18,380 nt of DNA from Spirochaetota bacterium. GTDB taxonomy: Bacteria > Spirochaetota > UBA4802 > UBA5550. Made by a program: the position numbers and the translations under genes. The stretch is taken from assembly GCA_050298055.1 (NCBI GenBank), contig JBNKTL010000031.1, positions 39,658 through 58,037 of the forward strand, read 5' to 3'. The notes under the pieces are model-generated. The model ran no database searches and was not told the DNA's origin. It saw only the letters and a list, made by a program, of their open reading frames with translations. This document shows, in pieces, positions 11,448 to 18,380 of this stretch. Numbering within the stretch: position 1 is the stretch's first letter; each line of letters opens with the position of its first letter.

Positions 11448-11895
11448 GGTGCTTGGAACCTAAAAACTATAATGAACCTGGCCTGTCACGACTATTTGTC
11501 AATAATATTACCGATATTTATCAGAACGATATCTTTATATTCTATTTCATGTAGCGCTTCATCATTTACACGAAAAACATGTTTTCCTTTATAAGAATAT
11601 TACTCTCGTGTCTCTTCATAAAGAAAATAAAGATTTAAAGAACTGTTTATTCTGCAATCTGGCTTTCACACAAAAAATCAAGTGAATAAATTACTATCAC
11701 ACATTTTCGATCCCCTTTCACACAGCTCTTATTCCCTTTTGGGATTTATCAGGATGTAAGCAACACATGACATGATTCATTTCTCTTTAAGTAATAATAA
11801 ATTTACACTTATAAAAGGTGTGTATAAGAATCTGTCAATATCTATAGGGATATATTGGGATGTTTCAGTAAACCCAAAGATTTAAAATGTAACTT

Positions 11896-11943
11896 CGGAT
11901 TTCTAATCCGTAGGTCCCAGGTTCGAATCCTGGCAGGCGTGCA
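11896..11943 (+). mobile_element. 3' fragment of tRNA-Arg(UCU); probable att core of a tRNA-targeting integrative element
   Basis: CGGA-TTTCTAA-TCCG anticodon arm (TCT at 11902-11904), AGGTC variable loop, CCAGG-TTCGAAT-CCTGG T arm and CAGGCGT-G acceptor 3' strand. No D arm or complementary 5' acceptor strand upstream. Confidence 0.85.
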
Positions 11944-11976
11944 TGTATTGTTCAGAAATTGAGTACTTTTGTGTAC

Positions 11977-12014: not shown

Positions 12015-12118
12015 GTTATCTGCTTTCTAAATGGCATAATTGCCCTCCTTGTCTGAAGACAATACCAACGTTTCTTTTTCCAATAATGGTTTGATTGATA
12101 TCATATTGCAATTAATTT

Positions 12119-12295
12119 TTATGTGATCTTATACTTTTTGATGTCTTCAGTTATTTCATCCAAATCAAATAAATACATTTTATGTGTTGGCTTATATGAT
12201 CTGATTCTGCCTTCTTTTGCCAACCTGCGTATTGTTTTAATAGGCAATCCGGTACAGTTAGATATTTCTTTTGAAGTATAAAATAATTTTTCCAT
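12119..12295 (-). CDS. Small HTH DNA-binding protein, excisionase/RDF-like (58 aa; not in the ORF track)
   Basis: Manual translation: MEKLFYTSKEISNCTGLPIKTIRRLAKEGRIRSYKPTHKMYLFDLDEITEDIKKYKIT. Winged-HTH (HTH_17-type) pattern; AAGGAG/GGAG RBS upstream; lies next to the att-like tRNA fragment. Confidence 0.75.
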   Translation of the reverse strand: MEKLFYTSKEISNCTGLPIKTIRRLAKEGRIRSYKPTHKMYLFDLDEITEDIKKYKIT

Positions 12296-12620
12296 TTTAC
12301 TCCATCTCCTTAACAGTAAACTTTCTTATTTATTAGTAGTTATTTGAAATTTATGAATTTCTAAAAGGGTTTTTAAAGCCTTATAAGAAGTTATATATCC
12401 TTATATTTAACTATATAGTTGCTGGTAGGGGGGTGTCTTTTCTTAGGTAAAACTATATAAATATACGATATTATTAGCATATATTATCATCCAATTAACC
12501 GATGCTCTCAAGCTTCAGTCTGTCTCCGGGAGTGATAAGATGGTTCTCAGGGAGATGGGGGAGTTTAAGAGGTTCCTGGAGGTGAGGTATGAGATTTATG
12601 TATATCGGTTTGAGTAAGGT

Positions 12621-12656: not shown

Positions 12657-13663
12657 TTGCCATGGAGACGCCAATATATTGAAATATAAGTGTTACTTTT
12701 TGTAATATTAGATATTAATTATCTTTTAAGAAAAAGTTTTAATAGTTCTCAATCCTCCATCGTATAGAACTATGTGTACATCTGTTCAGAAAATAAGGAA
12801 AACCCTCTCTATGAACCTGGACTTGAAAGGTGGAGCTATTACAAAACCATCTGGACCAGGCACTGGATAGATTTTTTAAAAATATATCCGCATGAATATG
12901 AAAAAACATACGGGCCTCTTGATGATGATAAAATTCGTGAGGTAAAGAAACTTGTAAGATGTGGTAAATTTCAGAATGGTTTCCAGAGACATACATGCCC
13001 TGCTTGTGGGACAGTTCTTGTGGTTCCATTCACATGTAAATCTCGCCTTTGCCTGTCATGCTACAGAAAACGACTCTTTGGATGGTCTTTAAATCTTTCA
13101 CTCATAATGAACACTGGTCTCCAGCATAATCATGTGACATTTACGATCCCTGGCACTGTTTCAAAGATGCTTTTTGAAAGGAATTATGACTCGGCTCTGA
13201 TGATTAATCTCGCGGCAAATATTTATAGGAATATTCTTGTATCATCAGCAAAGCTGAAAGGCAGGGAGTTCCAGCCTGGTTTAATGGCAACCCTGCATAA
13301 GAGCGGGAACAGCCTTAACTATAATCCACATGTTCATCTTGTGGGCACCACCCAGGTTGTCGATACATCAACAGGTGAGATTATTGATGTTCCTTATATC
13401 CCATACCGCAGGGTAAGGCACATCTGGAAAATGGCTTTTCTAAAGCATATATTAAAACAGGAAATCATCTCAGCCGAAGAATATGAAGAGTTCAGTGATA
13501 TGTATTCAAACGGTTTTCATGTCTACTTTCAGCCCATCACCGGAGACAGCAATGAAGTTCTTTTCCGGACATCGGAGTACATAGCCACCGGGTACTTCCA
13601 TAACAGCCAGATAACAGCGGTTGATCATGCGAAAAAAACCGTGACATTCAAATACAGGAAGTG

Positions 13664-13716
13664 GCCGCTGTTTGTACATCCATGTACACAGCGGCATGCA
13701 CAGCATCCTGCTGTTT
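13664..13716 (+). repeat. 53-bp double-hairpin insertion 1 in the transposase
   Basis: GCCGCTG-TT-TGTACA-TCCA-TGTACA-CAGCGGC, then ATGC, then ACAGCA-TCC-TGCTGT-TT. Removal gives ...YRKW-IDRQTG... in frame (boundary ambiguous by 1 nt). Confidence 0.8.
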
Positions 13717-13840
13717 GATAGACAGGCAAACCGGGAAAAAACTCTATTCCACAAAAACCATGGACATTTACCTTTTCATGGCATCCATGCTGTTTTTTCT
13801 TCCCGATAAAAACAGAAAGATGATCCGGTACTACGGCATT

Positions 13841-13896
13841 GCCGGCATTATCTGAACATCCTGTTCAGTGCCGGCAGGCAGACATCCTGTCTGCAC
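13841..13896 (+). repeat. 56-bp double-hairpin insertion 2 in the transposase
   Basis: GCCGGCA-TTAT-CTGAACA-TCC-TGTTCAG-TGCCGGC, then AG, then GCAGACA-TCC-TGTCTGC-AC. Removal gives IRYYGI-YSGNIEEKL in frame. Confidence 0.82.
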
Positions 13897-14155
13897 TATT
13901 CCGGCAATATTGAAGAGAAACTTGAATTGATTGAAAGGCGTACATGGGCAAAAGCCGTTGAACATTCATTTGAGAAAAATCCGGAAATTTGCCCTGAGTG
14001 TTCATCATTCATGAAGAATGATGTTGTATTTTCGTTCCATGCTGACAGGGAAATAAAGAAACTTGTAAAGACCCATAGAATAATTAACGGGTATTTCATT
14101 CCTTTTAAGAAATCCAGGCCTCCCTGATTATAGGTTTTGAATGAGAAATTTTGGA

Positions 14156-14184: not shown

Positions 14185-14242
14185 GAGTAATATTCAAAAT
14201 CATTTGATAATTGTGATGTGTTCGTTTGGTTTTTTTGGCGCG

Positions 14243-14347
14243 AAATTTTAATTACTGGTTGCATGCAGGGGAGACCCTGTCAATAAAAAATCGTTCACTC
14301 ACATACATATAAGATGCAGTATGTCACATGTGACTATAGGGTTTAAC
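14243..14347 (+). repeat. 105-bp direct repeat, copy 1 (candidate oriIS-type end)
   Basis: Identical to 18199-18303. Contains a CAGGG-GAGA-CCCTG hairpin and the palindrome GTCACATGTGAC; ends CTATAGGGTTTAAC; lies 115 bp after the transposase stop. Confidence 0.95.
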
Positions 14348-17016: not shown

Positions 17017-17058
17017 AACGCTACGTACAGTGTAATGAACGCTACACACAATGTAATG
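17017..17058. repeat. 21-bp tandem duplication (2 copies, 18/21 identical)
   Basis: AACGCTACGTACAGTGTAATG / AACGCTACACACAATGTAATG. Confidence 0.7.
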
Positions 17059-17323
17059 AAAGACACATATTAAATGCCCTGATTTACGATATCGATAATA
17101 CCAACCTGTTGTAGAAATTCGTCAACCAGCTTCCCCCTTTTGCTTCAGTGAAGAATCCTTTTTATGTTTCTTCTGAATTAAAAGAAAATCTAATTAACTG
17201 GATTAATTTTCCCAAGTAATGGAAAATAATACTTTACTATTATTAATTTTTCCCATATTGTATGCTGTTTAGTAAGATACAGCTAGTAATAAAACAAAAA
17301 CAAATAATAACTCGATAAGAAAT

Positions 17324-18198: not shown

Positions 18199-18303
18199 AA
18201 ATTTTAATTACTGGTTGCATGCAGGGGAGACCCTGTCAATAAAAAATCGTTCACTCACATACATATAAGATGCAGTATGTCACATGTGACTATAGGGTTT
18301 AAC
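18199..18303 (+). repeat. 105-bp direct repeat, copy 2
   Basis: Base-for-base identical to 14243-14347; identity stops abruptly after GTTTAAC. Confidence 0.95.
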
Positions 18304-18380
18304 GTAAGCGTCAAAATAACCCCACATAAAATTACCCGGAATCAATGGCCTTACTGTTAAGACAATACGGCAAAAGTTCT

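Follow-up and report, generated by a model that had tools for sequence, protein, structure and literature searches.

Within the window, by which we mean the whole stretch of 18,380 nt of Spirochaetota DNA that was analysed, a transposase gene is broken by two short double-hairpin inserts (Table 1), which raises the question of what these inserts are, how they came to lie there, and whether the gene that carries them is dead or regulated. The first-pass annotation had described both inserts from the letters of the window, and their lengths (53 and 56 nt) and coordinates were upheld.

Two double-hairpin inserts break an IS91-family transposase gene

Each of the two out-of-frame insertions disrupts the transposase reading frame, and their precise removal leaves 414 codons open from the GTG at 12774 to the stop at 14127, with the IRYYGIYS motif included, as had been claimed. 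The junctions were compared with uninterrupted homologues, and at least 12 of 23 homologous loci span both of them gap-free, confirming the proposed ends. In all, the homologues collected amount to 168 distinct genes or gene pieces, of which 58 have a long open frame; the closest ones come from records titled Spirochaetota. The gene belongs to the IS91 family (Zn-binding domain and Y2 HUH domain): the N-terminal piece matches PF14319 and PF04986, and with NCBIfam NF033538 the first piece (297 aa) reaches 121 of the 125 bits of the cut-off, which the intact homologue L002 passes with 151.6. Both inserts are predicted to fold more stably on the plus strand than any of 200 shuffled sequences (z = -6.2 and -7.9), and on either strand the z values lie between -5.0 and -7.9.

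A conserved CGT...(A/G)TGTA(C/T) word is present at the start of the gene in the intact homologues L002, L278 and L393 and at 12740-12800 of the window; the transposase start has no obvious ribosome-binding site, and is possibly leaderless.

Table 1. Coordinates of the transposase gene, the inserts and the associated sites in the window
Feature	Position	Strand	Remarks
IS91-family (HUH Y2, Zn-binding) transposase gene	12774..14127	+	414 codons; pieces 12774-13663, 13717-13840 and 13897-14127
Further family site	13517..13518	+	Empty in the window; filled in an X3 allele (loose end)
Insert 1	13664..13716	+	53 nt, inside the Trp297 codon
Insert 1, long bulged hairpin	13664-13695	+	Loop CATCCATG; followed by linker
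Insert 1, short hairpin	13700-13714	+	Loop CATCCTG; followed by 2-nt tail
Insert 2	13841..13896	+	56 nt, between Ile338 and Tyr339 of the RYYGIY motif
Insert 2, hairpins	long 13841-13875, short 13878-13894	+	2-nt tail
Further family site, Gly403^Tyr404	14091..14092	+	Empty in the window; filled in X3 and X5
Conserved motif behind the gene (GGCGCGAAATTTTAA-like)	14237..14347	+	Behind most intact homologues; runs into the 105-nt repeat

Empty and filled alleles

Contigs from four DNA runs were compared with the window region. A single 910-nt contig of run X2, which belongs to another study, omits exactly 13664-13716 and 13841-13896, with a junction ambiguity of one base at insert 1 and none at insert 2; it has no further letters differing from the window between the two sites and two beyond them. 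This empty allele is joined exactly, with neither a target-site duplication nor a deletion, in agreement with the earlier statement that no duplication is present. In run X3 the filled and empty forms of insert 1 are both found, and in run X5 a diverged piece runs gap-free across insert 2 with 21 differences in 185 bases. Filled/empty polymorphism extends to four sites of the transposase gene, including two that are empty in the window (Table 1), of which 14091^14092 is also occupied in L003, L010, L167 and L523, and in the sediment samples filled and empty alleles of one gene exist side by side. From the X2, X3 and X5 contigs it is therefore clear that the insert ends are exact, that nothing was duplicated or deleted, and that the family is active in this lineage.

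The idea that empty junctions might reveal removal of the inserts stood in part: such junctions do occur in DNA (X2 and X3), but as alleles in other samples, and an ancestor that was never hit would look equally so. In the window's own genome (G000, where it lies on contig C31) neither the 16- nor the 20-base empty junctions were found, and the one 12-mer is a chance match. The undecayed look of the gene had been read as a sign of removal; recent hits account for it most simply, and 6 of 12 well-aligned carriers have further lesions. On the best explanation, the IS in the window was killed recently and is not under regulation, and annotators should be aware that split transposases of this kind are insertion victims, not frameshifting genes.

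A repeat family of one spirochaete order

The inserts belong to a ~55-nt double-hairpin family with about 20 copies in G000, so the proposal, which depended on the existence of further family members, passed this check. A structural scan of G000 gave 20 hits (some three of which appear spurious on visual inspection), compared with 0, 1 and 0 in shuffled sequences, which excludes a chance origin of the double-hairpin structure. The model R1, trained on 13 transposase inserts, likewise gave 20 hits in G000, and copies in 34/40 relatives, 89/122 genomes of the order and 17/151 of the phylum, with a top copy number of 74 per genome; a family model search of the window returned inserts 1 and 2 only, in line with the annotation, which had noticed no other complete copy. 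Among 76 distinct copies, 87.8% of the cells are paired, a figure lowered by one mis-specified short-stem pair, compared with 66.7% after shuffling and at most 41.7% after sliding; the alignment of the copies leans towards the structure because it was fitted to the model. Scan, distribution and covariation together bear out the suggestion of a structure-conserved, REP/MITE-like miniature family.

The consensus consists of two side-by-side hairpins inside exact ends. The loops read C-N-T-C-C-(N)-T-G, with C-N-T-C-C conserved, and on the opposite strand 129 of 140 matched loops are CA(N)GGANG, GGA being lost in the other 11. The unit starts with G-Y-C-R in a paired stem in 77/77 aligned copies, and its last four bases are mostly G-T-C-N. 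Stem pairs are Watson-Crick in 1272 cases versus 31, and the wobbles are split 9:11 between the strands, symmetrically, as DNA palindromes predict; wobble pairs were also considered as a guide to the strand of function, and being symmetric they indicate none.

Outside the transposase genes the copies are mostly extragenic. None of the 13 non-transposase nhmmer hits in G000 splits an ORF, and about half of the 22 non-transposase copies listed there are nested in host repeats or in one another, and G000 also contains empty paralogues of these host sequences. The best 30 copies in G007 and G011 are all intergenic, those between co-directional genes pointing one way in six cases and the other way in eight (by eye), and inspection by eye of the complete genome G011 gave no replication-strand bias. 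In viruses, 0 of 42 pattern-matched loci passed the model, and one distant transposase was found in viral contigs. The pattern scan of genome contigs mostly returned chance matches (14 model hits in the 80 loci scanned of 120 matches), its five best model hits being Spirochaetota records.

Family copies often adjoin small toxin-antitoxin modules (HicAB, ParE, BrnT, PIN, DUF4160/DUF2442, MNT-HEPN), as seen at L098, L101, L102, L480, L483, L485, L487 and L144.

Density and polarity in transposase genes

With nhmmer, 155 kb of transposase gave about 29 hits and 395 kb of flank gave 1, an in-gene density that is overstated because the model was trained on transposase inserts, and 4/5 flank hits abut an aligned transposase piece. 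Relative to the non-ORF DNA of G000 (649 kb) the enrichment is few- to ten-fold, and in high-copy genomes there is about none. Element-anchored scans that used no transposase reference still gave transposase sites (L167, and 2/9 loci, L521/L522).

The orientation is strongly biased: all 25 in-gene nhmmer hits have the CATCC strand as sense, and 17/19 transposase sites point the same way (P = 7e-4). The two antisense sites are a distant relative in L413/L418/L420/L425, which was recognised by eye and is missed by R1, and a precise 57-nt copy in L521. A second, unrelated repeat family is sense-only in transposase genes as well (10/10, not counting two more pattern matches judged to be chance or the double-hairpin element). 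Since this unrelated repeat has the same polarity and the intergenic copies are unbiased (6:8), the polarity is a property of the target.

The same transposase genes also carry at least five other insert types. L014, L016 and L019 contain other frame-breaking inserts of 40-43 nt (three sites, one orientation), 41 nt and 70-74 nt, which are common to three diverged genes in incompatible patterns. At L015:5435-5747 the same transposase is interrupted by 313 nt that have inverted ends and contain a small GIY-YIG-like ORF (motif by eye). At L271:778-836 the CLSC zinc motif contains an in-frame family copy of 60 nt, and the frame stays open.

Recurrent insertion at the same base

A hand-made list holds 31 events, two of them doubtful (codons 185 and 253), and includes 23 same-base pairs against 0.37 expected with 1245 positions and 3.1 with 150. 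Insertions are found at codon 86 (five lineages), at codon 403 (four, with L523 in addition), at codon 297, where insert 1 lies (three), and at codon 339, where insert 2 lies (two); the base of insert 1 is also hit in L302/L318/L340 and L167, and that of insert 2 in L521 and L522, there by the same subfamily as insert 2. Together with the polarity, these same-base pairs substantiate the targeting that had been suspected from two hits in one gene. Elements at the same site are 80% alike and those at different sites 65% (P < 1e-4); only 7 of 16 elements have as nearest neighbour another element from their own site, and flanks at same-base sites are only 27-83% alike.

Carriers with a common insert have dS values of 0.4-1.6 and dN/dS of 0.04-0.14, and on the tree they are mixed with intact genes. 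The transposase family is mosaic, and L302 and L318 share an identical insert in a near-identical tract, because of which some insert sharing must be put down to recombination, not new insertion; five other comparisons gave no such co-conversion tract. Around codon 86, two carriers resemble each other no more closely than a carrier resembles an empty gene. In L016, L376 and L378 inserts are common in three mutually incompatible patterns, and their closest relative, L277, is intact. We conclude that the double-hairpin family is real, mobile and unusually targeted.

A possible route of insertion

On balance, and with moderate confidence, we regard the ~55-nt repeat as a non-autonomous, REP-like element of one spirochaete order whose insertion into single-stranded targets is precise and inactivates the gene that it enters. 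An enzyme acting in trans, most probably a single-strand nuclease of the HUH type (Y1/Y2), would recognise the hairpins and would cut and join one strand. A rolling-circle IS would expose one defined strand as single-stranded DNA, the strand that gets re-inserted, so that its gene would be favoured and the polarity fixed. The HUH chemistry is suggested by the mode of insertion, in which hairpin DNA enters with strand polarity and without duplication, as this chemistry gives (IS200/IS605 and REP/RAYT; PMC8266576), and the single-stranded intermediate of the IS is proposed as target because of the polarity of the second repeat and because only bottom-strand single-stranded IS91 circles insert, as described for E. 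coli IS91, not the window family (PMC13181058). With exact ends, polarity and preferred sites known, the element is testable. If targeting of the single strand of a rolling-circle transposon holds, it would be a hyperparasite that limits IS91 elements, and would point to a very small substrate for precise, scar-free insertion.

A bolder version, which we hold to be possible though doubtful, is that these elements are a protein-free class of ~55-nt hairpins parasitising rolling-circle IS, whose subfamilies each home to their own base-exact sites in the IS91 transposase and switch the IS off, possibly reversibly. Homing would proceed through the single-stranded IS intermediate, intron-like but without splicing or endonuclease, and would be the first worked mobility route for twin-GGA-loop (TwoAYGGAY-like) repeats.

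The first-pass annotation had also named an HUH-type enzyme as a possible mover, and here the searches gave no confirmation, as no Y1/RAYT, GIY-YIG or RT gene is consistently linked to the copies. Family copies are present at 1/37 Y1_Tnp loci (~0.8 kb away), at 0/9 further RAYT-like loci and at 1/15 GIY-YIG loci, and at L101 one RAYT-like gene lies ~300 bases from two copies, on one side. RVT_1 has no match in two high-copy genomes, PF04986 has none in the genomes with 74, 62, 38 and 31 copies, and Pfam searches of 71 of the 150 neighbouring ORFs gave no consistent partner.

No guide or target rule emerged by position, loop anchor or longest shared word among 18-22 events, with tests of low power for subfamily-specific rules: the best element-flank matches (10/18 and 12/22) fall inside the shuffled range, and the flanks of insert-2 subfamily members elsewhere are unrelated. 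Two candidate rules, a 7-nt match next to insert 2 and covariation between loop and target at codon 403, did not generalise.

Relation to known repeats and insertion sequences

The family resembles the REP/BIME/REPIN repeats and their RAYT (TnpA-REP, Y1 HUH) in being short non-coding palindromes with a bulged stem (PMC6006769, PMC8266576, PMC3733652), dispersed in many, mostly extragenic copies with lineage-specific expansions and nested in other repeats. As described for subclass 2.4 REPs, which occur inside their own tnpA genes (PMC6006769), it inserts in a transposase gene. It differs from REPs in that the unit comprises two different hairpins, reading frames are disrupted by its insertion and its preferred gene encodes an IS91 Y2 transposase. 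A REP foot (GT[AG]G or CGTC, also GTAG/GGAG) is absent on both strands, and no cognate tnpA-REP gene flanked by repeats was found in 6 genomes, from which partners can have been lost. The terminal inverted repeats and target-site duplication of classical MITEs are likewise lacking.

Elements of the IS200/IS605 family have hairpin ends, make no target-site duplication, use strand-specific single-stranded targets and leave an exact empty site. The present family agrees with their derivatives in its hairpin ends, the lack of duplication and the exact empty site, but no fixed or guide-encoded 4-5-nt target word and no autonomous partner with the same ends were found. By analogy, the family would appear to work like a REP or a non-autonomous IS200/IS605 derivative, yet it lacks their tags and partners.

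With TwoAYGGAY (Rfam RF01731) and Bacillaceae-1 (RF01690), for which CsrA binding and mobile-like spread have been proposed (PMC2864571, PMC4333381, bioRxiv 10.64898/2026.09.22.753630), it shares two hairpins with GGA-type loops on one strand and a variable copy number; it is distinguished from TwoAYGGAY by its size (~55 nt), its occurrence in Spirochaetota and direct empty-site evidence of precise insertion. None of four genomes has an RF01731 hit over the cut-off of 43 bits (best 37.7 bits), and G000 has none; hits overlapping family copies score 23-25 bits, and the window has no hit. AYGGAY is present in 7/140 matched loops and AGGAN in 114/140, and the basal stem common to both hairpins, a trait of TwoAYGGAY, is absent in the consensus structure. 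In the literature searched, which excluded the supplements of PMC6006769, PMC2864571 and bioRxiv 10.64898/2026.09.22.753630, there was no account of the ~55-nt family and no description of hairpin repeats aimed at IS91 genes. PMC4853749 was considered, and is not close.

Alternative explanations

Among the alternatives, it seems unlikely that the IS91-like transposase itself mobilises the element, with the double hairpin as a minimal ori/ter mimic and cis preference steering the element into the gene of the enzyme itself. The absence of duplication is as in the IS91 family and its miniature derivatives, and the terminal G-T-C-N resembles the IS91 cleavage words GTTC/GTCC/CTCG given in PMC13181058. 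Outside the window's family, element and transposase tend to co-occur (16 both, 5 transposase only, 12 element only, 25 neither; Fisher P = 0.002), although kin are not independent and part of the association is just the insert lying in the gene. Against this stand left flanks without an IS91-type target word, inserts that have no similarity to the ends of the host IS, and the plentiful copies in genomes without a detectable Y2 transposase, such as the four high-copy genomes that lack a PF04986 match.

Splicing or excision of the inserts is disfavoured. This improbable reading holds that the inserts are removed from RNA as micro-introns or reversibly excised from DNA, so that carriers stay functional and the insert is an off-switch. 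The sites lie in conserved motifs, are common to diverged genes and have one orientation, the elements are often more conserved than their flanks, and the low dN/dS of carriers at considerable dS, the incompatible insert patterns next to the intact L277 and the empty junctions in DNA could all be read in its favour. However, most copies are intergenic in either orientation and none was seen to split another ORF in G000, the same polarity is found in an unrelated repeat, and there are no matched take-off/landing codons, no group I/II core (no Rfam intron match) and no wobble asymmetry. Because intact genes lie between the carriers on the tree, the low dN/dS may predate the hit. Nor are carriers protected, as further lesions are found in 6/12 well-aligned carriers and 20/73 non-carriers (P = 0.17; the window gene and more distant copies fell below a 70% alignment filter).

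We think it no less improbable that there is no targeting at all, dead or dispensable IS genes being a neutral sink, with recombination between IS spreading a few old insertions. The mosaic family, the one common insert in a co-converted tract, the other insert types in the same genes and a density not far above that of intergenic DNA in high-copy genomes would fit, but a sink predicts no strand bias, and only 2/19 sites are antisense. Both window sites recur in genes with saturated synonymous divergence, and the codon 86 carrier pairs show no excess likeness near the site. The flanks between the two window sites are identical to the empty allele, and hence no foreign tract entered the window gene.

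Least probable is that the element is primarily an RNA module, consisting of two CsrA-binding hairpins on the opposite strand and spread by an RNA route or retained for regulation: its CA(N)GGANG loops resemble CsrA sites (CsrA binds GGA in hairpin loops; PMC8151843), CsrA is present in 5/5 genomes tested and the two sub-threshold RF01731 hits overlap copies on the GGA strand, but CsrA is common anyway and its binding to these loops putative, wobble asymmetry is lacking, 11/140 loops have no GGA, the GGA strand is mostly antisense in the transposase, and the two high-copy genomes gave no RVT_1 match.

Surroundings in the window

The conserved motif behind the gene (Table 1), which has no similarity to the inserts, is probably the IS end. 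It runs into an exact 105-nt direct repeat (14243-14347 and 18199-18303) that brackets ~4 kb of small, mostly unassigned ORFs and has related copies on many contigs, and this repeat possibly represents the IS end plus one-ended transposition or a cassette block. The stretch directly after the second copy (18304-18330) resembles a Tn3-family terminal repeat, and run X1 has loose ends at 14340 and 14347 with a similar word. Upstream of the transposase gene, 11870-11945 is the 3' half of a tRNA-Arg(TCT) gene that is present in full on contig C56, and looks like the att end of an island holding the IS. Beside it, at 12059-12298 on the minus strand, a small ORF-like stretch, with stops within the coordinates taken, is possibly an excisionase-like gene. 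Finally, a short tandem unit (TGTAATGAACGCTACA-like) at 17023-17068 has many copies across G000.
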